64,000 bases of DNA from Promethearchaeati archaeon SRVP18_Atabeyarchaeia-1 (GCA_037308085.1 CP147779.1:2016001-2080000); one strand, 5' to 3'. Shown: positions 64-59,180, counted from the first letter of the stretch. A program made the numbers and translations. The notes: generated by a model from the sequence alone, not told the origin.

Positions 64-840
64 CTACCTTCGGCGCCCACCCGGCGGCCGGAGGCGCGCC
101 TCCCCAAGCTGCTTCGCCAGGTCACCCTCCTCGAGCCTATGGCCACATGACGGGCACTTCTCGTTGACGTGCAGGAACTCGAGCAGGTGCACCCTGTGCG
201 CAGCAGCCCCACAGAAGGGGCACCAGGCAAGCAGATCACCCTCCCCAAACCCAAGGTGGCAGACCATGCAGATCCGCAGCCCATCACCCTGCGCCACGGG
301 GGGCGCCGCCTCGGCCGCTTTGCCGGGCGAAGGCGGGGCTCCGACGCCCGCCGCAAGGTTTTCCCCGCAGCTCCAGCAGTAGCCGGCATCCTCGTTGGCT
401 GCGCCGGCGCCGCAGCGCGGGCAGGCGCGCCCCTGGACGGCAGCCTCATCCGCCTTGGAGGGCGCTCCCCAGCGCTCAAGCTCAAAGAGCTCCGCGCTGC
501 CCTTATCCGCGAAGAACATCCTCATCTGCTCGTACTGGTTTTTCAAACTCTTCTTGGTGTCCCCCACGACCAGGAACCTGGCGGCGCATCTGTTTCCGCC
601 GGAACCTGCAATGACCACGAAGACCGTGTCAAGCGTATCCCCGCCGCTCTCCGTGTATACCACACCTAACCTGCCAGACTCGTAGAGGCGGGTTCCCGCC
701 CGATACCCTGCGAGGTTGTTAAGCTTCCCATAGAATTGGGTGAAGGCGTCAATGACCCTGCTCACATCGACACCGGGCCTAAGCCTTAGGCTGACCTCCT
801 CCCACAGGGGCGGCTCCCTCGGAAATCGACCAATAGACAA
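64..840 (-). CDS. Unknown N-terminal domain + zinc ribbon + C-terminal RING-like finger protein
   Basis: CPRCG..CWSCG ribbon; CMVC-x12-CPFC-x4-HRVH-x10-CPSC; N-terminus resembles that of 9960..10811. Confidence 0.8.
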   Translation of the reverse strand: MSIGRFPREPPLWEEVSLRLRPGVDVSRVIDAFTQFYGKLNNLAGYRAGTRLYESGRLGVVYTESGGDTLDTVFVVIAGSGGNRCAARFLVVGDTKKSLKNQYEQMRMFFADKGSAELFELERWGAPSKADEAAVQGRACPRCGAGAANEDAGYCWSCGENLAAGVGAPPSPGKAAEAAPPVAQGDGLRICMVCHLGFGEGDLLAWCPFCGAAAHRVHLLEFLHVNEKCPSCGHRLEEGDLAKQLGEARLRPPGGRRR

Positions 841-4004: not shown

Positions 4005-4307
4005 TCTTTTTTTTCTGCCAGGTCCTTAGGCGGCAAATGGGAGGAACACCGGGCTAGCCTCAATGCTCAATGTGTACCCTATCTCCCTACGACCCTCTTG
4101 CGAACTTCGATCAGCTGTCTACGATTCGAGGCGCATATGCGCGCTAAATATATGTGGTGCGACGTTTTCCTGTATCATTAGGCGGCGGGGCCCAGATATG
4201 GACCTTTGCCTCCTTCGATTCGGTTTATTCGTCCCTTGTCGCCCGTTCAGAGGGCGAAGAGGTACATGTGGTGAGTTTCGTTGGCAAGAATATGGATTGA
4301 GATGCAA
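4005..4307 (+). repeat. Diverged direct repeat, copy 2
   Basis: Colinear with 2887..3180. Confidence 0.9.
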
Positions 4308-5402
4308 AAGCAAGTCTACTTGCTTGGCGAGGAGGTAAGCGGCATTGTGCACGCCTCCTTGGACAAGCCAATCTCCCAGAGAGGCGCCGCAATACATTTG
4401 ATAGGTAAGGAGAGGACCGAAATCAGCTACCAACAGGCGGTCCAGCCAGGTCATACCCAGCAAACGGGGATAGGGGCTGTAATCCAAGGCTACCAAAGAA
4501 CAGGTCAACCCACTAGTACCCAGCAGACGCGCACGGAAACTGCGGTCCAAGAGTCTGAGTTCTTGCATCAGGAATATCCGATACCCTTGCCGGTAGATGA
4601 GAAGGGAAAGTTTAGTCCTGGAGAGCACGCCGCCCCGTTCAAATTCATGCTGCAGCAAGGTTTGCCGGCAAGCTACGCGGGCCGCCATGCAAGAATCCAG
4701 TACTTAGTAGAGGCGAAGATCGACGTTCCTATGGGTATGGATGTGAGGCAGTCATCTCAGTTTACCGTCGCATCGGCAAATCTTCAGCCCCTCCAATCTG
4801 GACCGGTTACCGCCTACTCCGACTCTTGGGGAAACCCGCAGAGCGCTGGCATCAGCTTCACTATCGAAAGAAGCCAATACGGGAAAGGCGAAGTTGTGAG
4901 TGGCAAGTGCTCCTTCAGAAATCCATCCTCGAAAGACTTGAGGAAGATTGACATCCATCTTAGATGGGTCGAGACGGCAAGCGCTCAAAACCAGAGAGCC
5001 ACAACCGAGGTAATTAGACAGGATTCCCAAATCCCGGTAGGGGGCAGAGTGCTTCAAGGTGAGACACCCTTCAGCATAAACGTACCCGGGCAAGCCCCAC
5101 CTACCTACGAGGCAACACTCTCAAATGTAAGATGCATTTTGAGCGCAAGCATGGACATCGCCATGGGGCTTGATGTCGCTGCAAGCCAGACGATTAGTAT
5201 CGTCGAAAACGCGGGACCTGGGGCGCCTCCGCCTCCCCAACCTCCAGTCAGGCAAGGCGAAGTACCTTGGACAGGCCCAGCGCAGACTTATCAGCCAGCC
5301 AACTACCCCCAACCAGCCGGCGCAGGCGCTTATTGCCCACACTGCGGTGCTAGCATCAAATCAGGCGAACAGTACTGCCCCATGTGCGGCTCCAGATTAT
5401 GA
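4281..5402 (+). CDS. Arrestin-fold (N+C; arrestin/Vps26/SpoOM-like) protein with Pro-rich linker and C-terminal zinc ribbon
   Basis: Y..GEEVSG, PGEH..PFKFML..GLPASY.G....IQY.VEAKID arrestin_N signature; second half repeats the fold; CPHCG..CPMCG. Confidence 0.85.
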   Translation: MARIWIEMQKQVYLLGEEVSGIVHASLDKPISQRGAAIHLIGKERTEISYQQAVQPGHTQQTGIGAVIQGYQRTGQPTSTQQTRTETAVQESEFLHQEYPIPLPVDEKGKFSPGEHAAPFKFMLQQGLPASYAGRHARIQYLVEAKIDVPMGMDVRQSSQFTVASANLQPLQSGPVTAYSDSWGNPQSAGISFTIERSQYGKGEVVSGKCSFRNPSSKDLRKIDIHLRWVETASAQNQRATTEVIRQDSQIPVGGRVLQGETPFSINVPGQAPPTYEATLSNVRCILSASMDIAMGLDVAASQTISIVENAGPGAPPPPQPPVRQGEVPWTGPAQTYQPANYPQPAGAGAYCPHCGASIKSGEQYCPMCGSRL

Positions 5403-8581: not shown

Positions 8582-9322
8582 TCAGCACCGCCAGTCCATC
8601 CTCTTCTGCATCGCCGGCGTTCCCCTGGAGTCTAGCCTCGTTTTCACAACTCTGTCAATTACCTCGTCAACGTTGTCCTTGATCAGAGAGCCGTGTGACG
8701 GTGCGATCATCTTGATATTCTTCTTCCCGAGGGGGGCCAGGTATTTCTTGATGTTCTCCTTGCTGTATCCGAGGCCTTCATGGAGAACCATGATGTCGTG
8801 GACGAGCCTTTCGGTTGGCGATCCCGCTGCCTGCGCCGCCTTTTTCTGGCCCAGCTGCCCGAAGTAGTCTCCAGAGAAGAGGATCCCATCAGGCTGCAGC
8901 AGGTAGACGACGGTCCCAGTCGTCTCTATGGGGGCGTAGATGACTTCCATCCTCCGGCTGCCAAGCGGGATCGTTTCTCCGCCGTTTACCGGCGTTATTC
9001 CTCTAACCACCCCCATGAAGCCGAGCTGAACCTTGAGGAAGTTGTGTGCAACGACGCTGGCATTGTATGCCTCTGACACGTATTCCGGGAGCCCCCCAAG
9101 GTGATCAAGGTGCTCATGGGTAATCATTATGTGGGATGTTGATTCGAGGGAAACCATGTCGCCAATCAAGCGGAGAAACCCGTTCGCCAAGTAGGGCGTC
9201 CCCGTCTCGATCAGCACAGGGGCCTTGCCGGCTATAAGGAAGGAGGATACGGAGATCGAGTTCTCCGGCAGATACTCGGTTAGCCCAAATACGCCGTCGG
9301 CGATCTCGTAGATGTCAACCAT
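8582..9322 (-). CDS. MBL-fold protein, standalone FprA/ODP-like domain
   Basis: LIETG, THEHLDHLGG, LFSGDYFG, IAPSHG; no flavodoxin domain. Confidence 0.75.
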   Translation of the reverse strand: MVDIYEIADGVFGLTEYLPENSISVSSFLIAGKAPVLIETGTPYLANGFLRLIGDMVSLESTSHIMITHEHLDHLGGLPEYVSEAYNASVVAHNFLKVQLGFMGVVRGITPVNGGETIPLGSRRMEVIYAPIETTGTVVYLLQPDGILFSGDYFGQLGQKKAAQAAGSPTERLVHDIMVLHEGLGYSKENIKKYLAPLGKKNIKMIAPSHGSLIKDNVDEVIDRVVKTRLDSRGTPAMQKRMDWRC

Positions 9323-9335
9323 GCTTGCCGCCGCC

Positions 9336-9752
9336 TCAGATGTAGCTGATCTGAGAGTACTTGCCGTTCACCTCATTTATCTCCCCTTCAAGCGCGTTGA
9401 GTTCTTCCTTTATCATGTCGAAGAGTTCCGGTGTGCTGCCGTTTATCTCCGTTTCACCGATCTTCTCTTCGATGATCTTGACGTACTTCTTGGCGAGCTG
9501 CTTGGCCACAGCCACGTTGACTCTCGAGATCGCGGCGAGCATGAGCCTTCGGCCCACCGCCAAGCTGATCTGGTTTCTGCCAGTGACCACCTGCTCAATC
9601 GACTCGCTTAGAACGCTCAATGTAAATGATCGGATGGCACTTAGGGCGGAGACCGCTAGCTCTGACTTGGCTCCGGGCGGTGCCCCGAAGAACCTGTCGG
9701 CAATCAGAAGACCCTCCTTTGTCCCCAGAATATAGCCGAAAATCATCGACAT
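9336..9752 (-). CDS. Small longin/roadblock-like domain protein
   Basis: Likely start MSMIFG (9752); pattern G.LI..R...L.VSALSAI.SF...VL...IE.V..G; homologous to 16819..17232. Confidence 0.6.
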   Translation of the reverse strand: MSMIFGYILGTKEGLLIADRFFGAPPGAKSELAVSALSAIRSFTLSVLSESIEQVVTGRNQISLAVGRRLMLAAISRVNVAVAKQLAKKYVKIIEEKIGETEINGSTPELFDMIKEELNALEGEINEVNGKYSQISYI

Positions 9753-9959
9753 CTCGAGAACACCACTTGAGGCGAACTCCCTCTCTCTTACCGAGTGAAG
9801 AGCTTCACTTGCCCCTAAAGCTTTTCTCCTCACGTCCTCCTTGGCGCCGCATTGAGAGAGTGATGCCATGATGAAGCGTATATGCAACAAGCTCTCACGA
9901 ACCCCGAGGTTTCTCTTGGGCATAAGAGAGATATATGCGGGAGGCGCGTAGTCAATTAC

Positions 9960-10811
9960 ATGTCGGTGAGACTGTCATTCGTCTTGAGGGGTAATTCAAG
10001 TATCCGCCAGCTAATGGATGTTTTTCGTGCCCAGTTCCACAAGGAAATACGGTTCAGGAAGGTCACCAAGTACGTCTTTGAGTCGGAGAAGACGTACCTG
10101 CTCATAGCGGAAAGAGAGAACTTCGCCGCCGCTGTCCTTCTTCAGCAAGACGGAGGCTCTTGGAGAGCACTGATTTCCCCGCAGCGCGTTTGGAACGAGG
10201 AAGTGTCTTTCTATCGGGGTGAAGAGTCTATCTTGGCCGAGCTCAAGACCTTCTTCACCCAGAAGTGTGCAGACATGATAACCGTAGTGAGCGCATGGAC
10301 GAGCAGCGATGAGAAGGAAGAACCACGTCAATCTGAGGATGACGATGTTACCCCCCTCTACTCGGAAATCAGCGAAGAGGGCACCATGACACGCTGCCCA
10401 AAGTGTGGAGCCGCGGAGATCATATTTCCCAACCAACGTAAGTGCTCGAAGTGCGGCACCGAGATAGTGAGAAAAGGCAGCTACCCAGAACCAGATGAGG
10501 CGGAGGAAGAAGCTGGCCCGCCTCCCACGGTTGTCCAATCTAAAGGCGCGGAGGTTGGCAAGTGCATGGTCTGTGGCATGGGCATCCATCAAGGCGAACC
10601 CCTCGCGTGTTGCCCGAGCTGCGGAGGCAGGGCGCACCGCGTACACCTGCTGGAGTTCGTTCACGTGAAGGGGGAATGCCCTTCCTGCCACAATCACATA
10701 GTAGAGGAAGACATAGCAGAACGAGTTTCGCATCAAGAAGTCGCAGGGAGCGCGTCTAACCGGAGAACACGCGTGAAAGCTGGATTCCCCAAGAAAAGCG
10801 GCGCCGAATAG
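9960..10811 (+). CDS. Unknown N-terminal domain + zinc ribbon + RING-like finger protein (paralog of 64..840)
   Basis: CPKCG..CSKCG; CMVC-x12-CPSC-x4-HRVH-x10-CPSC; ATG 9960 follows a TATA-like ATATAT. Confidence 0.8.
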   Translation: MSVRLSFVLRGNSSIRQLMDVFRAQFHKEIRFRKVTKYVFESEKTYLLIAERENFAAAVLLQQDGGSWRALISPQRVWNEEVSFYRGEESILAELKTFFTQKCADMITVVSAWTSSDEKEEPRQSEDDDVTPLYSEISEEGTMTRCPKCGAAEIIFPNQRKCSKCGTEIVRKGSYPEPDEAEEEAGPPPTVVQSKGAEVGKCMVCGMGIHQGEPLACCPSCGGRAHRVHLLEFVHVKGECPSCHNHIVEEDIAERVSHQEVAGSASNRRTRVKAGFPKKSGAE

Positions 10812-10879
10812 GGGGGATCCGTCAACAATAGGGGGCCCGCTCTACTTCAAGTAGGGCAGCTTGCCGGAATAGGGGATGT

Positions 10880-12190
10880 CTACTCATAGTCTTGCTCATT
10901 AAGGGCCCTTCCACATGCTGGACAGGTCTTGTTGCTGCGAATCCAATCTATGAGGTGCTGTCTATGCGCTAGTTTTCCGCAGTGGGGGCACCACACCACG
11001 TCGTCCCGCTGCCCGAGCTCGCCGCCACAGACCGTGCAGGCCTCTGTCACCTCTGCCTTGAGAGACGTGCTCCTCTTGATCTTTACCTGAAGGCTTTTCG
11101 CGGGAGCGGCCACCACCCTCGGCTCTGAGGGAATCTTCGCGCCGCAGTACGGGCAGAACTCGGGGCTTGGTGTCTTGAGGGTGGCGCCGCAACTGGGACA
11201 TCGGGCTGCTGGTCTCTGCCCAGTCTCTGTGGGTTTTTCCCTTGACCCCACGCGTTGACTCTGAAGTGGCTTCTGCGGAATACTCACCAGAAAACCGCTG
11301 CGCTTCTCCAGCTGCTGGGGAGGGAGAACCTTGTCGCCTACTGGGCTATCAACAACCCTTATGGTTGCAGTTGCTGCAACGTCTTCCCCCATAGATATAT
11401 CCAAGTTCGCCGTGAGGATGCACCTGAGGTTGAAGAGAGTTCTCTCGAAAGTCAATGGGGCGTCTTTGGGTATTGGAATACTGAAGGAGTTCTCGCCCTT
11501 GAGCACCCTGCTCCCCAAGGGTATTACGACGTCCTGTTCCACCAGATCAGTTTTGCCTTCATGGCCTTCGGCAACCGCGTTCTCAACCCATTTCAGCGAT
11601 ATGTCGATCTTTCTCAGGCTCTTCGTGCCCGGGTTCCTGAAGGCGCAACTGCCGCCGAGAACACTCCCTCTCTCGCATTCGAGCCCGCCCAGGCGGAGGC
11701 GGAGACCGGCGCTCGACTCTTCGCTCCAGAGGTCCGAGCTTACTTCAACTGGCCCAGAGGCCAGTGCTGGCTCCTGAAGGCTTGAGACTACGGTAATCTC
11801 GAATAGGTCCCTGATGTCGAATGCATTGGGGATATCGATCTTCGCGGCTATCCCATAGGTGATCTTAGCTTTAGTCCCTTCGTAGGTCCCCGGAAGCGTT
11901 TCGGGGAGTACGAACCTAAAGGGAATGGTGTAGTCCCCGGGCTCCAGCTTTCCTTTCCCGTTCACCGGCAGAGGCAACATGGACTCTTGGTGCAGAAACT
12001 CGGACTCCTCTCTCGCCTTAGCCCTGTTCTTTCCTGCCTGGTATTCCACCTCTGTTCTCTCCTTGCCTATCAGTGCCAGCATAGAACTTCTTTGAGAGGT
12101 AGACTTGTTCAGCGATACGTGCAGGAAGCCGCTTACCTCGTCACCAGGAACGTAGATTACCTTCTGAAGATCTATCCCCATTTCACTCAT
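10880..12190 (-). CDS. Arrestin(N+C)-zinc ribbon-RING-like fusion protein
   Basis: PGDYTIPFRFVLPETLPGTY..KITY.I.AKID; CPSCG..CPYCG; CTVC-x12-CPHC-x4-HRQH-LIDW..CPAC. Confidence 0.85.
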   Translation of the reverse strand: MSEMGIDLQKVIYVPGDEVSGFLHVSLNKSTSQRSSMLALIGKERTEVEYQAGKNRAKAREESEFLHQESMLPLPVNGKGKLEPGDYTIPFRFVLPETLPGTYEGTKAKITYGIAAKIDIPNAFDIRDLFEITVVSSLQEPALASGPVEVSSDLWSEESSAGLRLRLGGLECERGSVLGGSCAFRNPGTKSLRKIDISLKWVENAVAEGHEGKTDLVEQDVVIPLGSRVLKGENSFSIPIPKDAPLTFERTLFNLRCILTANLDISMGEDVAATATIRVVDSPVGDKVLPPQQLEKRSGFLVSIPQKPLQSQRVGSREKPTETGQRPAARCPSCGATLKTPSPEFCPYCGAKIPSEPRVVAAPAKSLQVKIKRSTSLKAEVTEACTVCGGELGQRDDVVWCPHCGKLAHRQHLIDWIRSNKTCPACGRALNEQDYE

Positions 12191-12384
12191 GGAGTTATCC
12201 CCCTGCCTCTTCAATATGTGTGGATTCGTCCCGCTTGGTTGAAAGCGCGCCAGAGCTTATGCGTCTCAAATCTAGTAGCCATCACACATATATATCCCGG
12301 TTCGGTTCAACCCCCACGGCGTCGGGGCTCGCCAAGGATCAGGTGCGCACATGGTGGAAAGCTCGGTTCTCGCCGATTAGCCTC

Positions 12385-13779
12385 CTACCTGTAGTCCGCC
12401 TCCTCCAAGCTCTTCCCGCAGGCGGGGCAGCTCTTACTGCCAGCGATCCACTCAAGGAGATGCCCTCTATGCGCGAGTCTGCCGCAGTGGGGGCACCAAA
12501 CAACATCATCGCCCTGGCCGAGCTGACCGCCGCAGACTGTGCAGGCTTCTAACCCCTGCGCCTTGGGGGGAGCGGTTCTCCTAACTCTCACCTCTGTGGC
12601 CTCCGCCACAGCAGGCGCTTCCCTCGGTCCTGCCAGGAGCCTCGCACCACAGTACGGGCAGTAGCTGGCGTTGGGTGTCCTCAGGTTGGCGCCACAGTCG
12701 GGGCACTGCACCACTGGTCCTGGCACAGTCCCAGGTAGACTCACCGGGCGACCTGCATATGTATTTTGATATGCCTTCTCGGAGGGCTTCTCCGAGGCAC
12801 CGTAACTCTCAGCCGGGGAGTAAGGCATGGCTTTCCCACGCTCCACGTACCCGAAGATCCTGATGGGCTGATCCGCCGCCACGTCCGACGCCCAGGCCAC
12901 GTCGAGGTCTGTTCTCAGAACACACGTTACGCTTGCGAGGGGCGACTCGAAGGTTAGCGGAGCATCCTGGGGTATCGGGATACTGAAGGGGCTCTCACCT
13001 TTCGGCAGCTTGCCTCCAAGGGGCACCTCAGCAGCCTGCTTCATTACGTCGGTTGTCACAGTATGGCCTTGGGCATTCGCTGTCTCAACCCACCTCATTT
13101 CCACCCCGATCTTCCTCAGGCTCTTGGAGTCAGGATTCCTGAAGGCGCACCTCCCACTCAAGACTTCCCCCTGCCCATATTCACAGCGATCCAGCCTGAA
13201 GCTGATGCCGGGGCTCTCCGGGCTTCCCCAGTTGGCTGAGCAGGCATCGACCGGCCTAGGCGCGGAGACCTGGGCCCCTGTGAGAACATCAAACTCACAC
13301 GACTCGTTAACGTCAGACCCCATGGGCACATCGATCTTCGCGGTGATCACATACGTGATTCTCGCGTGGTTGCCCCTATACGTTGCCGGCAGACCTTGCG
13401 AAAGCGTGAATCTGAAGGGGAACTTGTAGGTCCCAGATAGGGCGCGCCCCTTCTCGTCAGGAGGCAGAGGCAAAGGGCTATCTTGGCGCAGGAACTCGGA
13501 CTCTTCAACCGCAGTTCGATGCTCCATCGTCGAGCCTCCTCCAAAGGTTGAGCGCCCCCCAAAGGTTGAACGCGCACCGAATCCCCGATGCCCCGTGACG
13601 TGTACCGTGGTGGTGTAACTGACCTCGGTCCTCACCTTCCCCAGCAATTGCAGCAAGGCGCTTTTAAATGAGACTGGTTTATCCAACGAAACGAGTACGT
13701 TGCCGCTTACCTCTTCACCAGGGAGGTAAGCCTTCTTCGGAAGATCTATCCTCATATCCCCCATACGCTGACCATCCAT
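12385..13779 (-). CDS. Arrestin(N+C)-zinc ribbon-RING-like fusion protein
   Basis: Same architecture; GTYKFPFRFTLSQGLPATY; HRGHLLEW..CPAC. Confidence 0.85.
   Translation of the reverse strand: MDGQRMGDMRIDLPKKAYLPGEEVSGNVLVSLDKPVSFKSALLQLLGKVRTEVSYTTTVHVTGHRGFGARSTFGGRSTFGGGSTMEHRTAVEESEFLRQDSPLPLPPDEKGRALSGTYKFPFRFTLSQGLPATYRGNHARITYVITAKIDVPMGSDVNESCEFDVLTGAQVSAPRPVDACSANWGSPESPGISFRLDRCEYGQGEVLSGRCAFRNPDSKSLRKIGVEMRWVETANAQGHTVTTDVMKQAAEVPLGGKLPKGESPFSIPIPQDAPLTFESPLASVTCVLRTDLDVAWASDVAADQPIRIFGYVERGKAMPYSPAESYGASEKPSEKAYQNTYAGRPVSLPGTVPGPVVQCPDCGANLRTPNASYCPYCGARLLAGPREAPAVAEATEVRVRRTAPPKAQGLEACTVCGGQLGQGDDVVWCPHCGRLAHRGHLLEWIAGSKSCPACGKSLEEADYR
13541..13582 (-). repeat. In-frame 18-bp tandem repeat (FGARST-FGGRST-FGGGST)
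   Basis: CCAAAGGTTGA recurs at an 18-nt period on the + strand. Confidence 0.8.
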
Positions 13780-14212
13780 GGCTCCTCACATTGAAGAGGT
13801 ATCCGATCTAACAAGTGGTACGGAAGCCCCTCGGTGAGCTACCAACGCCTTGAAGGGTGTTGGCTTCCTGGTTCATGGACCGAGCTCGCCTTAGCGCGTG
13901 GGGCACCGCTGAGGTTCCCCGGGTGCGCCAGGGTAGGGGCTTCGATCTCCGCAGGCGTAGATTCGGCACGCACCGTGCCTACCGCCCAGACAGATGCATC
14001 TTCCTCTATTTAAATCCGCCATCCATCCCGCACCCTTTAGGGCATGGGCTTTCTGACCCGCGTCGGCAATAAATCCTTTTGCGCCCTAACTACTATCCCG
14101 GCTCCCAGGGGGAACAGTGGCTGGGCCGGGAAGAACATAGGCGTACTACGGGACGGCGCGGCGCGCGAAGTGCGTGTGCGCCGAGAAGCACGGGTTGTGG
14201 CACCGCAGAGCC

Positions 14213-15514
14213 CTATCTGTAATCCTCCTCGTTGAGGCTCTTTCCGCAGGCAGGGCAGCTCCTGTTCCTGGCAATCCACTGCAGAAGGTGCTCCCTATGT
14301 GCCAGTTTACCGCAGTGGCGGCACCAGACTACGTCGTCGCGCTGGCCGAGTCCATAGCCGCAGACGGTGCAGATCTCCATCCCCACCACCTCTGAATCTT
14401 CGCTTTTCTCGGTGTTGACCTGCACGCCTCTTGCCATAGGAGTGACCTCTCTCGACTCTCCCCGGATTCTCGTGCCACAGTGTGTGCAGTAGTTGGCGTC
14501 CCTAGCTCTGAGAGAATTGCCACAGCTAGGGCACCTTGTGGCGGACATCCGCCCAGCCTCTGCGAGGTACTCGCCGCGATCTGATAAGTCAGACTCATCT
14601 GGTTTCTCCAGAATACCCTTTGCCGTAGCCTTCTCCCCGAATCTTGGATATGAGACTGCGCCTTCCCCGTATCCCTGGCTCGCGATGATTATTGTCTTTT
14701 GTGCTTCAACGTCGCTTCCCAGAGCGACGTCCAGTTTCGCGGCGAGGACGCATCTCACGCTTGATAGGGGCGATTTATAGGTCAGCGGGGCATCCTGGGG
14801 TATCGGGATGCTGAAGGGGCTCTCACCTTTCAAGAGCCTGCCTCGGAGCGGTACGTGAATGATCTCCTCCGCCACCTCAGCCCTTGCCTTGTGGTCCCCG
14901 GCCTTTGCTGCTTCGATCCATTTCAAGGTAAAGTCAAACTTCCTCAGGTTCTTGGAGCCTGGGTTCCTGAAGGCGCACCTCCCGCTCAGGACTTCCCCCC
15001 GCCCATATTCACAGCGATCCAGCCTGAAGTTGATCCCAGGGCTCTTGGGATCGTCCCAGGAGTCTGAGCAGGCGTTGGTCGGTTCGGACCGGAAAACCGG
15101 GAACCCCGAGGTAACCCCGAACTCACGCGAGTCTCCAATGTCGAACCCTAGAGGAACATCGATCTTGGCTGTTATCGTATACAGGATCTCGACATTCCTC
15201 CCCTTGTACGTTCCTGGGAGCCCTTCCGGGATCATGAATCTGAAGGGGATGTCATAGTCTCCTGCTCTGAACCTCCCTCCCTCGTCAGTTGGCAGAGCTA
15301 CCGGAAGTTCTCGGTAGAGGAACTCCCGCTCTTCGACCGCTGTGGCGGTGCTTTCCCCTGCTGAGTAAGTGACACTCGTTCTTTCCTTCCCCATCATGCA
15401 TATCGTGGCACTCCTGCTGGAAACTGGTTTATCTAGGAAAAGGTGCACGAAGCCGCCCACATCTTCCCCTGGATAGTGAAGTGACTTCTGAATATCTATC
15501 TGTGCTCTGCGCAC
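14213..15514 (-). CDS. Arrestin(N+C)-zinc ribbon-RING-like fusion protein
   Basis: GDYDIPFRFMIPEGLPGTY; CPSCG..CTHCG; HREHLLQW..CPAC. Confidence 0.85.
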   Translation of the reverse strand: MRRAQIDIQKSLHYPGEDVGGFVHLFLDKPVSSRSATICMMGKERTSVTYSAGESTATAVEEREFLYRELPVALPTDEGGRFRAGDYDIPFRFMIPEGLPGTYKGRNVEILYTITAKIDVPLGFDIGDSREFGVTSGFPVFRSEPTNACSDSWDDPKSPGINFRLDRCEYGRGEVLSGRCAFRNPGSKNLRKFDFTLKWIEAAKAGDHKARAEVAEEIIHVPLRGRLLKGESPFSIPIPQDAPLTYKSPLSSVRCVLAAKLDVALGSDVEAQKTIIIASQGYGEGAVSYPRFGEKATAKGILEKPDESDLSDRGEYLAEAGRMSATRCPSCGNSLRARDANYCTHCGTRIRGESREVTPMARGVQVNTEKSEDSEVVGMEICTVCGYGLGQRDDVVWCRHCGKLAHREHLLQWIARNRSCPACGKSLNEEDYR

Positions 15515-15892
15515 GGTTCTGCGCCTCCTGCCCGTCGCCTCATGTCATGTATCTAGCGATCTTGAGCATTTATCTGCTCCCCCTTAGGGTCAGCTCGGTT
15601 CTTTCATGGGCCGGACCTCATCAGCCGCAATAGGGAGCCAAGGCTAGCGCATAGTGCGCAATGATTACGAGGGCATGGCCTTCACCCGCAAGCCAAGGCT
15701 GGTTGTCAACTTGGATACGATCAGGCGAAGTGATAAGCCATTACTATCTCCACGGAAAAGTGAGGGCGCAAGCAGGCGGCTCTCGTGAGAGAGCGGGCGG
15801 GAGTCCGATGGTGTCGGATGACGACACGACTTAAATATGACCGTACGTAAAGGTTAAGATGGAGAGCCGCGGGCAACCTGGCTGGTTGCGCC

Positions 15893-16681
15893 GTGAGGAG
15901 GGGATCCGCGTTGGAAAGGAGTGCTCTGCCTTCAATCCTTGAACGATTAATGTTTGTTGTAGCGCTTGTTTTGCTTGCCATCGCGATTGCCTTGCCCTTC
16001 TATCAGGTATACATTCCTCCTTGGGGTGGACTCGGAGGGGGGGTGCGCAGAGATGTCTTTGGCTACGAGGAGCCGATACTTCTATTCTCATATTCTGCCT
16101 TCGGGCTATTTGCACTCCTATATATCGAGAAGATTCTTCTTGCAAAGAGGAAAACCGCATATGACTTCAATGCTCCACTTGCGTACGCCACGCTGCTCTT
16201 GGGGTTGCCCGCCCTTATCATGCTCGCGCTGACCCACCCAGAATACGTCGGCGGCGGAATGCGTATCCCAGAGTCAAGCGGCGTTCTCTTTATGATCCTT
16301 ATGCCAGGGGGCTACGTGTACCTTGCGGGCTGCGCCTTGCTCATCGCAAGCCGGATCGTTCCCCTCATGGTGCCAAAGAAGAGCGCCCCTGCTTCAGAGA
16401 GAATCGCTGGTTGGCTCAAGAGAAACCGGGTAGGCGCCTCCACCACGGCGCTCCTTTTGACCGCCATATCATCTATTCTGCTAACGTATATTGGCTCGGG
16501 GACGGTAGATTCAGTTACTGACTATGGTTTTGGTATTACCACCCTCTTCCTATTCGACGTATCGAGGCGTTTTATATACTTGGCGCAGTATGGAGATCTG
16601 TTTCTCCTCTTGGTCATCCTAGCAGCAATTGCGGTGAATATAGTGCTCTACTCTCGCTACAGGGTTCGGCTCCGAAAGTAG
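15893..16681 (+). CDS. Hypothetical polytopic membrane protein (about 6 TM)
   Basis: Multiple hydrophobic segments; divergent from the arrestin array. Confidence 0.65.
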   Translation: MRRGSALERSALPSILERLMFVVALVLLAIAIALPFYQVYIPPWGGLGGGVRRDVFGYEEPILLFSYSAFGLFALLYIEKILLAKRKTAYDFNAPLAYATLLLGLPALIMLALTHPEYVGGGMRIPESSGVLFMILMPGGYVYLAGCALLIASRIVPLMVPKKSAPASERIAGWLKRNRVGASTTALLLTAISSILLTYIGSGTVDSVTDYGFGITTLFLFDVSRRFIYLAQYGDLFLLLVILAAIAVNIVLYSRYRVRLRK

Positions 16682-16818
16682 GTCGGGGGCTTCCCTCGGC
16701 AAGCCGCAATGCCGTCCACTTAGCTCTGCGCGGTGAGCGGAGAGGTGGTGAGATGGGCAACCCCAGCCCATAGGCTATTCAGGATTCATACTTCCTGAGG
16801 GTCAAAAGGCAAGCGCCC

Positions 16819-17232
16819 CTACCAGACCGCTTCCCGCATCTTCTGGTCCGAGTCCTTGAAGAAGCGGTCGTAGGCTGCATCCAGAGTCTGGGTGGCGTCC
16901 TTTAGAGTCTCCCAATTCTCGGAGTACTCTTGGGGTGGGAAGTTGCTGAAAAAGATGTTCTGCAGCTCCTCTAGTTCTTTCTTGACTACGCTCCCCTTTG
17001 CGTTGAGTTCTGTGCGGGTGATGAAGAGCAGCTTGTGGGCCGAAGCAACGAAGTACATTGAATTCCCTATGGAGACGGATTCCAGTTCACCTGACAGCGT
17101 CTTCTTCGCGAAGGAGTCCATAGCAGTCATAAACCCTGGGAGGAGGTGCTGCTCTGCCTGCTTCTCAGTGGACTTGGAGTATATGCTCGTGCCAGCATCC
17201 GTAACTACGTAGAAGTGGGTTATCATTGGCAT
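16819..17232 (-). CDS. Small longin/roadblock-like domain protein
   Basis: FYVV..AG.SIY.....LL.GFM.AM.SFA.....GELE.V.IG pattern, typical of Asgard longin-like proteins. Confidence 0.7.
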   Translation of the reverse strand: MPMITHFYVVTDAGTSIYSKSTEKQAEQHLLPGFMTAMDSFAKKTLSGELESVSIGNSMYFVASAHKLLFITRTELNAKGSVVKKELEELQNIFFSNFPPQEYSENWETLKDATQTLDAAYDRFFKDSDQKMREAVW

Positions 17233-17255
17233 AGCTCATTCTACCGCTATACAGA

Positions 17256-17987
17256 TTACTGCCTGAGGCGTCTCGGCAGAACGAATCCAATGTAGAGCAG
17301 AATCCCAGAGATTCCCGCCGCGATCCAGCCCGCGATGACCCAGTAAGTGTAGCCTTCCGGCTCGAAGAACGCTGTCCAGACGCTGTCCATGACGAACAGC
17401 AGGTAGGCTACGATTATGCTTAGGGCTGCCAAGCGGATGTAGGAGAATCCTCGCCTCGCAATCTGGTCGGTTGTTCCGTGAATTGCGCGCGTTGTCGCCA
17501 TGATAAGCGTGAGGTATAGCGCCAGGGCGAAGGTGAGGTGGACCAGAAGGAGAACTGTGAACGTGTCGAGGAGTGTTGAACCAGTAGCCATTGTTGGGCC
17601 GAGGATGGGCAACAGCACCGCGACCGCTCCTTCCACCACGCCGAAGATCTTCAGTCTTGCTCCTCCGGATTCTCTGCCCTTATAGAAGATCTCCAACATG
17701 AAGAGGTACAGGAAAATGTTGGCTATAGCCGACATTGAGAAGGCTAGGCTCAGGCCGACCCTCCGAATGCCGACTAGAGGATCCATGACTAGCATGTCCA
17801 GAAGCTGCATGCATGTGGTCAGACTCAGGAATAGCGAGGTGAGGGTGATGTAGCGTGTAGCAGGCTGCCTGCGCTCCCTGTACCGCCCGAAAAGCTTCAG
17901 TGTCAGAAACACGAGTATTGCCGTTATTATCACTTGGCTCAGGAAGACCATGAGCACTCGCTCGTTGAAGAAGACTACGCCCAGCAT
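17256..17987 (-). CDS. Seven-transmembrane protein
   Basis: Seven hydrophobic helices, basic loop after TM1, ends LLYIGFVLP; 23 nt upstream of the longin-like gene. Confidence 0.75.
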   Translation of the reverse strand: MLGVVFFNERVLMVFLSQVIITAILVFLTLKLFGRYRERRQPATRYITLTSLFLSLTTCMQLLDMLVMDPLVGIRRVGLSLAFSMSAIANIFLYLFMLEIFYKGRESGGARLKIFGVVEGAVAVLLPILGPTMATGSTLLDTFTVLLLVHLTFALALYLTLIMATTRAIHGTTDQIARRGFSYIRLAALSIIVAYLLFVMDSVWTAFFEPEGYTYWVIAGWIAAGISGILLYIGFVLPRRLRQ

Positions 17988-18346
17988 TGCCCAACACCTA
18001 TTCAACTAATCGGCTCCGAAACTAACAAGATTATCTCGTGAGGGATTTCTAATATACGTTTCGGGGAAGGTGCGAGGATCGCAAGAAGCGCCGAGCCTGC
18101 GCTCTCACCGACTGGGAACCGTGAAGCCGAAAAGCGTGACGGGCAAGACATTGAGAACTTACCTTTGAAAGCAGAGGCAATGGGCCCCGCCCCAGCTATC
18201 TATTTAAGCCTTCGACAAGCTATGTTCTGGAGGCAACTTCATCCACGAGCAGACTGCCAACCCCAAGCATCCCCTAGCCCTCAAGGGGCACAGAAGCAGT
18301 TCCCTCAGAAATATATATTTAACCTTAGATGGATGGAGGAGGTAGC

Positions 18347-19000
18347 ATGGTAGACGCACAGGCGATCATGTCCCTGGAGATCTTAGCTGTGAAGGAGCAA
18401 GCCAAAGTGTATGGCCCGGTCATCCCGAGACTCGTCGGAATCTCCGCGTCGAAGTTTGTCGCCGAAAAACTGGGGGAAGCCACACCCGCCGTCAACAACC
18501 TTGACCAAGCCGTCGACTACCTTACAAAGAGCCAAAGCCGGTACCCGAAAGCCTTCACGGCCTTGGCCTACGGAGTCTACAAGGCGGGAAGCACGCTTGA
18601 AGGAAACTCCGGCGCCAGCACCAGGATCTTCAAGTCAATCATGAGAAAGATCATGGAGAGCATGGGGCTCGGGAAGATGCTGGGCCGCGAGCAGAGCACA
18701 TGTGCCGCGATAACGAAGAACACGAAGTTCAACGAGGACATGAACGTAGTTGAGAAGGGAATCACGAAGGTCACCGGAGACAGCAATACTGCCGTGAACG
18801 CTATCACGGGGTGCGACTACATCGACGTATGCAACAAACTAGCACAGGAAGGAATTTTCAGGGCAGCCTCATGCGGGCTAGAGTGCATCTACGCGCTGTC
18901 GGACGCCGCCACAGCAGCAATGCTGACGGGCAGCGAACACGAATACCGGGTATTGAGGTTCGACCCACCGATATGCGAGTACAAGGTTTTCAAGCTTTGA
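18347..19000 (+). CDS. Hypothetical protein, V4R-like Cys pattern (paralog of 33615..34319)
   Basis: GGAGG before ATG 18347; KVYGPV; GCDYIDVC...ECIY...ICEY. Confidence 0.6.
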   Translation: MVDAQAIMSLEILAVKEQAKVYGPVIPRLVGISASKFVAEKLGEATPAVNNLDQAVDYLTKSQSRYPKAFTALAYGVYKAGSTLEGNSGASTRIFKSIMRKIMESMGLGKMLGREQSTCAAITKNTKFNEDMNVVEKGITKVTGDSNTAVNAITGCDYIDVCNKLAQEGIFRAASCGLECIYALSDAATAAMLTGSEHEYRVLRFDPPICEYKVFKL

Positions 19001-56894: not shown

Positions 56895-57134
56895 CAAAGG
56901 CTCCCCTAACAACATGATTGAATAGGGCCAAAGCATAAATCACTTCCTAGCATTATCGCGTTCTTCTAGCTCGCATGGCATTCCAGTTGTGGAGCGGGCC
57001 ACAGAGCGTTGGTCCTGGAGTTCCGCCAACGGCTACGCGTGCCTTGCACATTACTGCTCGCCTCCATACATTTATAGGGTGGTCATTCACAAAAAAAGAT
57101 CAGTGTGATAGGTGGAGAGGCGAGAAGGGGGAAG

Positions 57135-59180
57135 ATGAGAAGGCTCTCTTATCGAAGCGCAGGCTCGCTAACCTGCAAAGCAGTTGTCATAATGATCCTC
57201 GCGTTGTCAGTAGTAGCATCACTGCAGCCGCTGCTTGTGACTGCAGGCAAGCATAGCCAGTGGGCAAATCCTGCAGCAATGGCAGTAGTTGGGGGCCAGG
57301 AACCGACGGAAGCGAGCCCCCCAGCAAATGTGACAACGCACTGGACCTACGGCGCGGGCCAATGGGCTGTTTCTTCTCCAGTCATCGCCGACGTGAACCG
57401 AGATGGTAAACTGGAGATAATCGTAGGCTCTATGGACAACAAGGTCTACTGCTTGAATAGTGGAGGCGGATTAGCCTGGACATACACGACTGGGAATTAT
57501 GCCTATAATGTCGGCGCTGTCGCGGACATTGATAACGATAGCAAGGTGGAGGTAGTCTTCGCCTCATGGGATCGCAAGATCTACTGCCTGGATGGAGCAG
57601 GCGGGCAAAAGTGGAACTACACAACGTACCCCAACGTTCCAGGATACTGCCTGTTGGTAGGTTCTCCTACCCTCGCAGACATCGACGGCGACGGCAAGAT
57701 GGAGGTAATCATAGCTTCCGACAAAGTCTGGTGTCTGAATAGTACGGGTGGATTAAAGTGGGCATACAACCTGGGCGAACCTGCCGGGGACTCATGCAAA
57801 GTCGCTGACGTTGACGGGGATGGCAAGATGGAGATAGTGTTCGGGGCATACGACAACAAGGTCTACTGCCTCAACGCAACGGGCAAACTGGAGTGGACAT
57901 ACACAACGGGAGGTGCTGTCAGAACCTCATCTGCAATCGCTGATGTGGACGGAGACGGCAAGACGGAGATAGTCATAGGCTCAACTGACAACAAAACCTA
58001 CTGCCTAGGCGGAACAGGCGGGCTTAAGTGGAGTTTTGAATCTGGAGGCGTGATCTTCTCTTCTCCTGCGACCGCCGATGTTGATCAAGACGGCAAGGTA
58101 GAGATAGTGTTCGGCTCAGATGACAGCAGGGTTTACTGCCTAAGTGGAGTATCCGGCGCAATGAAGTGGAACTACACAACAGGAGGCTATGTCCAGTCTT
58201 CCCCTACAATCGCTGACATTGACGGAGATTCGAGGCTAGAGATAATTATCGGGTCGGACGACCGGCAAGTCTACTGCTTCGACGCGTTCGGCAACGTAGA
58301 GTGGACATACGCAACGGTGGGAAACACCACTACAAAGCCTGCTGTTGCAGATGTGGACGGCGATGGTGCATTGGATCTTGTCGTTGATTCGGATAAGGTA
58401 TACTGCTTCAGCGTTCCTCCAAGTCGTACGAGCTTGATTTGGGGCTCTATGGATGGCTGGACGATCGGGGGTGGCATCGCCCAGTCGTTTGACGGCACAG
58501 CTGGTGGCTGGGTGGAGATCGACATGCAAGTCTCATCTGGGATGTTCAACTTCCTAGTCTTGGACAACAGCGACTGGAGCGCCCACTATAACACTTTTCC
58601 CTACATATTTGATCATCCTTATGCCAATGCCACGGGAGTCACGGGAAACACCACGGTGTTCGTCCAGATTCCTCTGAGCGGGCAGTACTGGATCTACATC
58701 AACACCTATGGTGCACCCATGAACAATAACAGTGCCTCATATCAGGTCTGGCTCTGGAATCAGACTCCACCTAGTCAGACGGGATCTTTGCCTCCAGGCC
58801 AGACGGGATCGACGCCTTCGGGAAGCATTTCGCCACTTGTTGTCTGGCTAGGCGTCGGATCCGTGGGCTTCGCCGTGGTGGCGGTTCTAGCGGTGAGGGG
58901 AAGAAGTAAGGCGGGGAGGTACATCCCCGGTGAAAGCGCGGCGGGCCCAGAAGCGACAGTGGGGACGGCTGGCAGTGATGGGCGGGCAATGCGCGAGTCT
59001 GGTACACCAAGCTTTGGGCGATGCATCGTCTGCGGCATGGAAATTCGCCGAGGAGAGATGCTTGTCACATGCGCTTCGTGCGGAAGCATGGCCCACAGAC
59101 TGCACATGCTGGAATGGTTACACGTCCATGATTACTGCCCGGCCTGCGGAAAGCACCTAGATGAGCGATCTCTCACGTGA
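57135..59180 (+). CDS. Single-pass receptor-like protein: signal peptide, 8 FG-GAP/Ca-blade repeats, beta-sandwich, TM, cytoplasmic RING-like finger
   Basis: 8x ADxDxDGxxE..GS.D..VYC; TM LVVWLGVGSVGFAVVAVLAV then RGRSK; CIVC-x12-CASC-x4-HRLH-MLEW..CPAC. Confidence 0.85.
   Translation: MRRLSYRSAGSLTCKAVVIMILALSVVASLQPLLVTAGKHSQWANPAAMAVVGGQEPTEASPPANVTTHWTYGAGQWAVSSPVIADVNRDGKLEIIVGSMDNKVYCLNSGGGLAWTYTTGNYAYNVGAVADIDNDSKVEVVFASWDRKIYCLDGAGGQKWNYTTYPNVPGYCLLVGSPTLADIDGDGKMEVIIASDKVWCLNSTGGLKWAYNLGEPAGDSCKVADVDGDGKMEIVFGAYDNKVYCLNATGKLEWTYTTGGAVRTSSAIADVDGDGKTEIVIGSTDNKTYCLGGTGGLKWSFESGGVIFSSPATADVDQDGKVEIVFGSDDSRVYCLSGVSGAMKWNYTTGGYVQSSPTIADIDGDSRLEIIIGSDDRQVYCFDAFGNVEWTYATVGNTTTKPAVADVDGDGALDLVVDSDKVYCFSVPPSRTSLIWGSMDGWTIGGGIAQSFDGTAGGWVEIDMQVSSGMFNFLVLDNSDWSAHYNTFPYIFDHPYANATGVTGNTTVFVQIPLSGQYWIYINTYGAPMNNNSASYQVWLWNQTPPSQTGSLPPGQTGSTPSGSISPLVVWLGVGSVGFAVVAVLAVRGRSKAGRYIPGESAAGPEATVGTAGSDGRAMRESGTPSFGRCIVCGMEIRRGEMLVTCASCGSMAHRLHMLEWLHVHDYCPACGKHLDERSLT

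Follow-up and report, generated by a model that had tools for sequence, protein, structure and literature searches.

Three tandem arrestin-zinc ribbon-RING proteins of an Asgard archaeon as candidate single-chain ubiquitin ligases

Eukaryotes keep ubiquitin ligases and adaptors of the arrestin family as separate proteins, whose pairing selects membrane proteins for sorting that depends on the endosomal sorting complex required for transport (ESCRT). To our knowledge, substrate selection by the ubiquitin systems of Asgard archaea is essentially unknown, and the only characterized archaeal E3 that we know of is a bare finger of 80 amino acids (aa). Here, we analyzed a stretch of 64,000 nucleotides (nt) of Promethearchaeati archaeon SRVP18_Atabeyarchaeia-1 (GCA_037308085.1 CP147779.1:2016001-2080000), in the following called the window, which carries three neighboring genes for paralogous proteins, A, B, and C, each composed of an arrestin-like part, a zinc ribbon, and a RING-type finger. 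The question raised by this locus is whether client recognition and ubiquitin ligase activity are combined in one polypeptide. Sequence comparison and structural models suggest that A, B, and C are probably soluble single-chain RING E3 ligases in which the arrestin module selects the substrate.

A first-pass annotation made from the DNA alone had described a tandem array of three paralogs, and the open reading frames (ORFs) were found exactly where it had placed them, on the minus strand of the window, intact and co-oriented, with 444, 464, and 433 aa for A, B, and C (coordinates of all features are listed in Table 1). The ORF boundaries agreed as well, with one correction: A likely starts inside the proposed end at 12214, at the ATG at 12190, which is preceded within a few nt by GGGGGAT and yields a protein of 436 aa. 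The start codon of C is, according to its AGGAGG 9 nt upstream and to the homolog alignment, the GTG at 15514 (433 aa); the public gene call of C (P0004) is a truncation of 394 aa lacking the first strands of the arrestin N-lobe. A Shine-Dalgarno-like site was found before each of the three genes. The proteins share 47% pairwise identity over their full length, and repeats at the DNA level are still 61-84% identical. Identity is distributed unevenly: the RING is the most conserved part (72-76%), followed by the arrestin lobes (46-61%) and the linkers (14-29%). B contains a Gly-rich insertion of about 27 aa within the N-lobe, as seen in the paralog alignment. Judged from sequence, a catalytic tail that stays constant, tethers that are flexible, and surfaces that have diversified for client binding would be expected to give such a pattern. 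None of the three proteins has lost any of its 12 zinc ligands, each has 19-28 lysines, and a crude hydropathy count gave no transmembrane segment for A, B, or C.

The arrestin part was recognized at the levels of sequence and structure. Arrestin_N matched A, B, and C with 63, 87, and 59 bits (Pfam cut-off 24.9; E = 4e-17 for A), and their second lobe was matched by Spo0M, a family of the arrestin clan, with 39, 34, and 23.6 bits (cut-off 23), and not by Arrestin_C. An AlphaFold2 (AF2) model of A, calculated with a 147-row alignment from an exhaustive profile search, had a mean predicted local distance difference test (pLDDT) value of 87.6, with values above 90 and mostly above 95 for the lobes (residues 1-281). 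It comprises two beta-sandwiches (residues 1-135 and 147-281) and disordered linkers at 291-323 and 361-379, together with a small ribbon and a beta-beta-alpha finger. In a Foldseek search of the PDB, the top match of this model was the alpha-arrestin ARRD-6 of C. elegans (E = 1.9e-17), followed by Vps26A/B/C with template-modeling (TM) scores of 0.63-0.67 relative to the target, TXNIP, and beta and visual arrestins. The latter reached target TM scores of about 0.5, below Vps26 and ARRD-6. The alignments, with 300-360 columns, span both lobes of ARRD-6, Vps26, and beta-arrestins. A, B, and C are therefore members of the arrestin clan by sequence and by fold, and the two-lobed arrestin fold proposed at first pass is borne out by Arrestin_N, the AF2 model, and the ARRD-6 match alike.

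The C-terminal tail was characterized in the same manner. The ribbon of all three proteins was matched by the Pfam families Zn_ribbon_3, DUF7575, and DZR. Prok-RING_1 matched the finger of A, B, and C with 31-36 bits (cut-off 29.1), and zf-RING_2 with 23-27 bits in hmmscan and with 29-32 bits (cut-off 27.3) in a six-frame search of the genome. In an alignment of 54 ribbon-RING modules, all four ribbon cysteines and seven of the eight finger ligands are invariant, the second His is present in at least 90% of the rows, and the Pro of C-P-x-C is invariant as well. A phmmer search of the finger against all PDB chains gave RING E3s only as top matches, namely RNF4 (1.3e-6), RNF24 (3.2e-6), Arkadia (4.5e-5), and EL5 (6.5e-5). 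Folded alone, the ribbon-RING tail of A reached a pLDDT of 86-91 over the finger. The top Foldseek/VIA matches of this tail model were all RING or U-box domains (TRIM37, RNF165-UbcH5b~Ub, EL5, HRD1, TRAF6, and the U-box of Prp19), the fold searches covering residues 54-114 of the module model and the zinc geometry being derived by superposition. The superposition on RNF165 had a root-mean-square deviation (rmsd) of 1.2 Å over 48 residues (Z 6.6), and that on TRIM37 of 2.3 Å over 58 residues (Z 7.4). Overall, Z ranged from 5.5 to 7.4, values below 8 being middling for so small a domain, and the best crystal and cryo-EM matches had an rmsd of 1.2-2.3 Å over about 50-58 residues. Pfam, the module alignment, and the Foldseek/VIA superpositions thereby agree with the C4 ribbon and the eight-ligand cross-brace finger described in the first-pass annotation. 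By its sequence, the finger is of the archaeal type of RING-H2 known from small RING finger proteins (srfp) and Prok-RING_1.

This tail is not confined to the array. A motif scan of the whole chromosome detected 28 proteins ending in the same finger, C-x2-C-x12-C-P-x-C-x4-H-x2-[HD]...C-P-x-C, and in 21 of them the finger is preceded, within 75 aa, by a C4 ribbon whose start is typically about 54 aa from the RING. The N-terminal parts of the 28 are diverse; according to the crude hydropathy count, roughly half have transmembrane segments, and single-pass proteins of 690-830 aa that resemble receptors are among them. The window holds further members, e.g., at 64-840 (-), 9882-10811 (+), and 57105-59180 (+). 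The hydrophobic residues that contact the E2 in RING E3s are kept in 28 of 28 genomic RINGs. With 28 finger proteins and one E2, the arrestin proteins appear as one use of a design in which a recognition module is joined to a ribbon-RING cassette. Eukaryotes, too, combine numerous E3s with few E2s, a pattern that this set of many RING proteins and one E2 resembles on a small scale, and the set may matter as much as the array.

The genome, one closed contig of 2,808,651 bp, encodes a complete ubiquitin system, as had been anticipated for an Asgard host. A cluster at 0.326-0.336 Mb contains genes for Vps28, a UEV-Vps23 fusion (ESCRT-I), a JAB protease, an srfp of 83 aa, ubiquitin, E2, and E1. 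The ubiquitin ends in GG-ND and the E2 carries HPN...C; this is the only canonical E2 of the genome, and there is a single UEV. The E2 is 79% identical to a protein labeled Candidatus Atabeyarchaeum deiterrae. The start codon of its gene (L027:5789-6256, which is G000:331788-332255 in the genome) seems to be an ATT that precedes the first ATG by 17 codons. GGGGTGA precedes this ATT, homologs begin there with an N-terminal helix, and gene calling based on ATG would delete the helix. The N-terminal helix of E2s contacts E3s.

The RING of the arrestin proteins is homologous to the srfp of this operon, with 38% identity over 50 aa (E = 4e-16). In A, B, and C, the E2-contact residues are the Val of C-T-V-C, the Trp after H-x2-H, the Pro of C-P-x-C, and an Arg or Lys at position +2 after the last Cys. 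For the srfp of Caldiarchaeum subterraneum, it was shown that the protein is required in vitro for substrate ubiquitylation together with its E1 and E2, that mutation of I30, W58, or R69 impaired the reaction, and that ligand pair 2 has an extra Cys (Hennell James et al. 2017, PMC5654768). Judged from the motif and not from a direct alignment, Val, Trp, and Arg/Lys of A, B, and C appear to match I30, W58, and R69.

Co-folding of the tail of A with the E2 of the genome, N-terminal helix included, gave a score of 0.41, which counts as weak support, and the best control reached 0.01. In the calibration, 58 of 80 solved complexes passed the mark, as did 2 of 110 mismatched pairs; these counts hold only approximately because the co-fold used alignments made for this analysis. 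Passes with a score of at most 0.60, the range into which 0.41 falls, came from only 7 of the 80 solved complexes but from both passing mismatches. Three runs shared at least 90% of the contacts, and the pLDDT of the partner was at least 84. As RING-E2 complexes are already solved, such a pass may reflect likeness and not binding. The proposal of the first-pass annotation that A, B, and C are self-contained E3s is thus the best-supported reading through the srfp-family RING and the E2-contact residues, but the E2 co-fold lends it only weak support.

In the mechanism that we favor, the N-terminal double beta-sandwich of the alpha-arrestin/Vps26 type would bind and select a client, and the divergence of the arrestin lobes between the paralogs suggests different clients for each of them. 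Two disordered tethers with the C4 ribbon between them would join the lobes to the near-constant RING-H2-like finger. This finger would dock the single canonical E2 of the genome charged with ubiquitin and would stimulate direct transfer of ubiquitin to lysines, either on the bound client or on the ligase, the flexible tethers allowing the RING-bound E2~ubiquitin to reach these lysines. Binding of substrates by the arrestin part and catalytic competence of the RING are presumed in this mechanism, and membrane proteins are conceivable as clients.

Several observations weigh against this mechanism, and part of them would suit proteins that are no ligases at all. The basic residue stands at +2 and not at +1 after the last Cys and varies across the wider module family. 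The ligand pattern also departs from canonical RING-H2, pair 2 being C-x2-C and ligand 6 being His. The array (2.027-2.031 Mb) is unlinked to the ubiquitin operon (0.329-0.333 Mb), about 1.7 Mb away, and the membrane-protein genes near the array are not conserved neighbors. Furthermore, some RINGs are purely structural, e.g., at the ends of protocoatomer-type proteins (GATOR2/SEA and the intraflagellar transport complex IFT-A), and the tail model aligned with the C-terminal zinc-finger/RING domains of GATOR2/SEA subunits and of WDR19 of IFT-A (Z 5.7-6.0). The three proteins might accordingly be non-catalytic adaptors or scaffolds with the ribbon-RING tail as a zinc-stabilized module for protein-protein contacts or oligomerization. 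The offset and variable basic "linchpin", the structural RINGs among the fold matches, and the weak E2 co-fold would be in line with this, and family members that stop after the ribbon (P0006-P0011, P0014, P0015, and a further paralog in the window, D) indicate that an arrestin-ribbon core works alone. However, the nearest solved relatives by sequence are active RING-H2 E3s, the finger is homologous to the operon srfp class shown to act as E3, the hydrophobic E2 contacts are kept throughout the genomic set, and a full ubiquitin, E1, and E2 system with one tiny dedicated RING would lack substrate choice. We therefore regard a non-catalytic role as unlikely.

Single-chain ligases could also differ from our proposal in the role of the arrestin-like domain, which might be a Spo0M-like regulator or sensor, or itself the main target of an auto-ubiquitylation that sets the turnover of the ligase, with soluble targets and without a link to membranes or ESCRT. 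The Spo0M matches of A, B, and C at or above the cut-off, the missing transmembrane segments, the lack of a conserved membrane-protein neighbor, and the lysine content would agree with that. The fold has other uses as well, since relatives consisting of arrestin alone are widely found among non-Asgard archaea and ubiquitin-less bacteria. On the other hand, the structure matched best is that of an alpha-arrestin on a membrane channel complex, followed by the Vps26 cargo adaptors, the divergence of the paralogs is concentrated in the lobes, as for client recognition, and a divergent homolog (P0013) is encoded directly upstream of a transporter gene of the major facilitator superfamily (MFS). Taken together, we consider such a sensor or self-target role quite improbable. 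Hardly credible is that the array is an artefact of annotation or assembly, a set of decaying duplicates, or mobile or defense cargo that has no role in the cell. The flanking TnpB-like gene at the related array of contig L028 and the great rarity of the fusion would speak for this, but the chromosome is closed, the three frames are intact with 12 zinc ligands per copy and Shine-Dalgarno-like sites, orthologs occur in independent metagenomes, and there was no PADLOC match. A reading of the array as a defense system was dropped, as neither the array nor its neighbors had a match in PADLOC. NCBIfam offered no meaningful family for the array proteins.

The reading as single-chain RING ligases invites comparison with eukaryotic alpha-arrestins (ARRDC1-5, TXNIP, yeast Art1-10, and ARRD-6), which are built on the same two-lobed arrestin beta-sandwich as A, B, and C. 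Presumably, the logic is also common to alpha-arrestins working with Nedd4/Rsp5, in that a chosen client meets a ligase activity through a soluble arrestin module. This genome also encodes an ESCRT-I that includes a UEV domain, by which eukaryotes read such marks. Unlike in the ART pathway, the ligase would be a covalently fused RING and not a recruited HECT protein, and the fusion is limited to a narrow archaeal lineage. No PPxY ([PL]PxY) motif was found in A, B, and C, and a HECT search of the genome gave no match, control genomes being without HECT matches as well. Because of the lack of PPxY and of a HECT match, A, B, and C are not alpha-arrestins or ARTs in the functional sense. As an archaeal counterpart of ART-Rsp5, each paralog would bind particular membrane proteins by their cytosolic parts and ubiquitylate them with the single E2, and the UEV of the ESCRT-I encoded next to the ubiquitin operon would recognize the mark. 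By analogy, transporters, seven-transmembrane (7TM) proteins, or nearby surface glycoprotein paralogs may be the clients. The MFS gene after P0013 and the membrane-protein genes around the array are weak hints in this direction, and we judge this extension doubtful. If true, a prokaryote would sort or turn over membrane proteins in a manner that depends on ubiquitin.

A, B, and C can also be compared with other known proteins. The operon srfp of C. subterraneum and of Asgard archaea has the same RING variant, including the extra Cys in pair 2, but it is a stand-alone finger of about 80 aa inside the ubiquitin operon without a recognition domain, whereas the finger described here is the tail of a protein of 430-460 aa. 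As A, B, and C are multidomain proteins and lie outside the operon, they are not srfp themselves. The prokaryotic arrestin-like proteins (Spo0M family; Thor-, Bathy-, Thermoplasmatota, and Chloroflexota) have homologous cores of about 280-300 aa (E = 1e-49 to 1e-20 against the family profile), but they lack ribbon and RING, and the neighbors found in the Atlas are of the same kind. Vps26 and Vps26C, known from retromer and retriever, match in fold; paralog D exceeds the Pfam cut-off of Vps26 (28.3 vs 27 bits), whereas none of A, B, and C does. A retromer-like reading was rejected as the genome search gave no Pfam match to Vps35 or Vps26, a weak argument since the controls were also silent. Finally, other Asgard proteins with ribbon and RING, of which forms of about 180-190 aa are common, have the identical C-terminal cassette of ribbon, linker of conserved length, and RING. 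Their N-terminal modules are transmembrane segments, receptor ectodomains, or unassigned domains, whereas arrestin occurs in this lineage only. Arrestin is a recognition domain apparently not seen fused to a ligase before, and the design is apparently undescribed. No description of an arrestin-RING fusion was found in the literature searched, subscription papers and InterPro architectures lying outside this search. Neither the Atabeyarchaeia genome paper (PMC11291895) nor the 2024 ESCRT survey mentions arrestins.

How old is the fusion? Besides the three copies of the window, five other full-length proteins were found among about 15 billion. A word-indexed search of 5.8 billion clusters gave only 12 relatives. 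An exhaustive hidden Markov model (HMM) search of 1.84 billion representatives gave as full-length clusters only P0005, which is paralog A itself, P0013, and P0016, plus fragments. The five full-length proteins from outside the window (P0001-P0003, P0013, and P0016) are all metagenomic singletons with misleading names (e.g., RpoP, DUF1610, and spo0M). Among 400 Asgard species genomes, the full-length architecture was present in this genome only. A fragmented metagenome-assembled genome (MAG) of the same genus, in which a RING-bearing copy is possible, and a closed sister genome have arrestin-ribbon genes without RING. Arrestin-only genes occur in several Asgard families, and small ribbon-RING proteins are nearly ubiquitous in Asgard genomes. 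The ribbon-bearing subfamily forms a clade with 100/99 support, its internal order, including that of the RING-bearing members, being left unresolved. Paralog D, which ends directly after the ribbon, falls in this clade, and the window holds every arrestin gene of the genome detectable by Pfam.

The closest relatives point to maintenance of the copies within the lineage. P0003 is an ortholog of A (77% identity), and contig L028 is syntenic with the array, with a tandem arrestin-RING pair consisting of an ortholog of A and a probable ortholog of C. After this pair follow a neighbor with ribbon and RING, a metallo-beta-lactamase gene, and a RING-less arrestin. With orthologs of both A and C in L028, the duplication predates that split, and the copies are old and maintained. 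Outside the lineage, no RING motif was found at any of 20 arrestin-only loci from other Asgard genomes (up to +/-8 kb, 274 kb, six frames), which argues against a widespread arrestin/RING gene neighborhood or a wider association of arrestins with E3s. The suggestion of the first-pass annotation that the fusion might be a precursor of arrestin-directed ubiquitination was not supported: the fusion is found in one narrow lineage and a few metagenomic singletons. Its narrow distribution and the 20 loci lacking a RING make an independent, analogous invention more likely than an ancestral state, and the fusion looks like a lineage-specific invention. Such a distribution argues for convergence and not for ancestry, which limits what the fusion says on eukaryogenesis.

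The interest of the array lies mainly in a tractable entry to Asgard substrate selection and less in evidence on eukaryotic ancestry. It is a compact, soluble, expressible system, in which one chain can be combined with one E1, one E2, and one ubiquitin from a closed genome. Two questions could thereby be addressed: does an archaeal RING that comes with its own recognition domain ubiquitylate defined clients, and did arrestin folds already serve in client selection outside eukaryotes?

Table 1. Positions of the array genes, their domains, and related genes in the window
Feature	Coordinates	Strand	Basis or remark
Paralog A, arrestin-zinc ribbon-RING	10880..12214	-	ORF of 444 aa from TTG; 436 aa from the likely start, the ATG at 12190 (P0005)
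A: arrestin N-lobe and C-lobe (aa 1-281)	11348..12190	-	Arrestin_N, AF2 pLDDT >90, Foldseek
A: C4 zinc ribbon (Cys 331, 334, 346, 349)	11135..11206	-	Zn_ribbon_3 and DUF7575 above cut-off
A: RING-H2-like finger (aa 385-436)	10883..11038	-	C-x2-C-x12-C-P-x-C-x4-H-x2-H-x3-W-x6-C-P-x-C-G-R
Paralog B, arrestin-zinc ribbon-RING, 464 aa	12385..13779	-	Arrestin_N E 1.5e-24, Prok-RING_1 33 bits
B: zinc ribbon (Cys 359, 362, 374, 377)	12637..12711	-	Pfam match
B: RING finger (aa 413-454)	12418..12543	-	Pfam and motif
Paralog C, arrestin-zinc ribbon-RING, 433 aa	14213..15514	-	Arrestin_N E 5.5e-16, Prok-RING_1 36 bits
C: zinc ribbon (Cys 328, 331, 343, 346)	14465..14539	-	Pfam match
C: RING finger (aa 382-423)	14246..14371	-	Pfam and motif
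Paralog D, arrestin and zinc ribbon, without RING	4281..5402	+	Arrestin_N E 2.9e-23, Arrestin_C 35.3 bits, Vps26 28.3 bits
Zinc ribbon-RING protein without arrestin	9882..10811	+	weak Pfam ribbon and Prok-RING_1 matches, RING motif

Among the neighboring genes, the one at 9882-10811 is convergent with paralog A and encodes an N-terminal domain of about 150 aa without known family, followed by ribbon and RING. A counterpart (L028:3910-4833; 28% identity, E = 6e-19) lies beside the array of L028 as well, but in opposite orientation. A paralog of the 7TM gene at 17256-18005 (-) is located at another site of the genome (G000:2694179-2694892; 58%). The sister genome has a single 7TM copy (58% match) far from its arrestin gene, and none was found in the MAG of the same genus. 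These comparisons suggest that the 7TM gene beside the array is a lineage-specific duplicate; together with its longin neighbor, it was dropped as a candidate client for want of conserved linkage.

The spacer between C and B (13780-14212) is unusually long with 433 nt, and a perfect TTTAAATA box is located about 230 nt upstream of the start of B. From its sequence, the spacer could be a long leader or contain an unannotated small transcript; an Rfam search of 9000-19000, which includes the spacer, gave no match. For the divergent homolog P0013 (L029:3080-5859), the MFS transporter gene lies on the same strand 279 nt downstream, and a phage-type integrase is encoded a few kb away. TnpB-like genes (Cas12f1-like TNB) flank both the ubiquitin/ESCRT-I cluster (L027:172-1434) and the related array contig (L028:8-865).

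In one large Asgard family, arrestin-only genes often occur as tandem pairs (genomes G326, G327, G329, G328, and G317; loci L030, L032, L034, L036, and L041), so that tandem duplication is not special to the genome studied here. In the Atlas, the cluster nearest to P0005 in feature space is a eukaryotic, mostly chlorophyte family of FYVE-domain proteins of 507 aa (score 0.83), which we take as a lead only. Eukaryotic arrestin-FYVE proteins are another combination of an arrestin with a treble-clef zinc finger.

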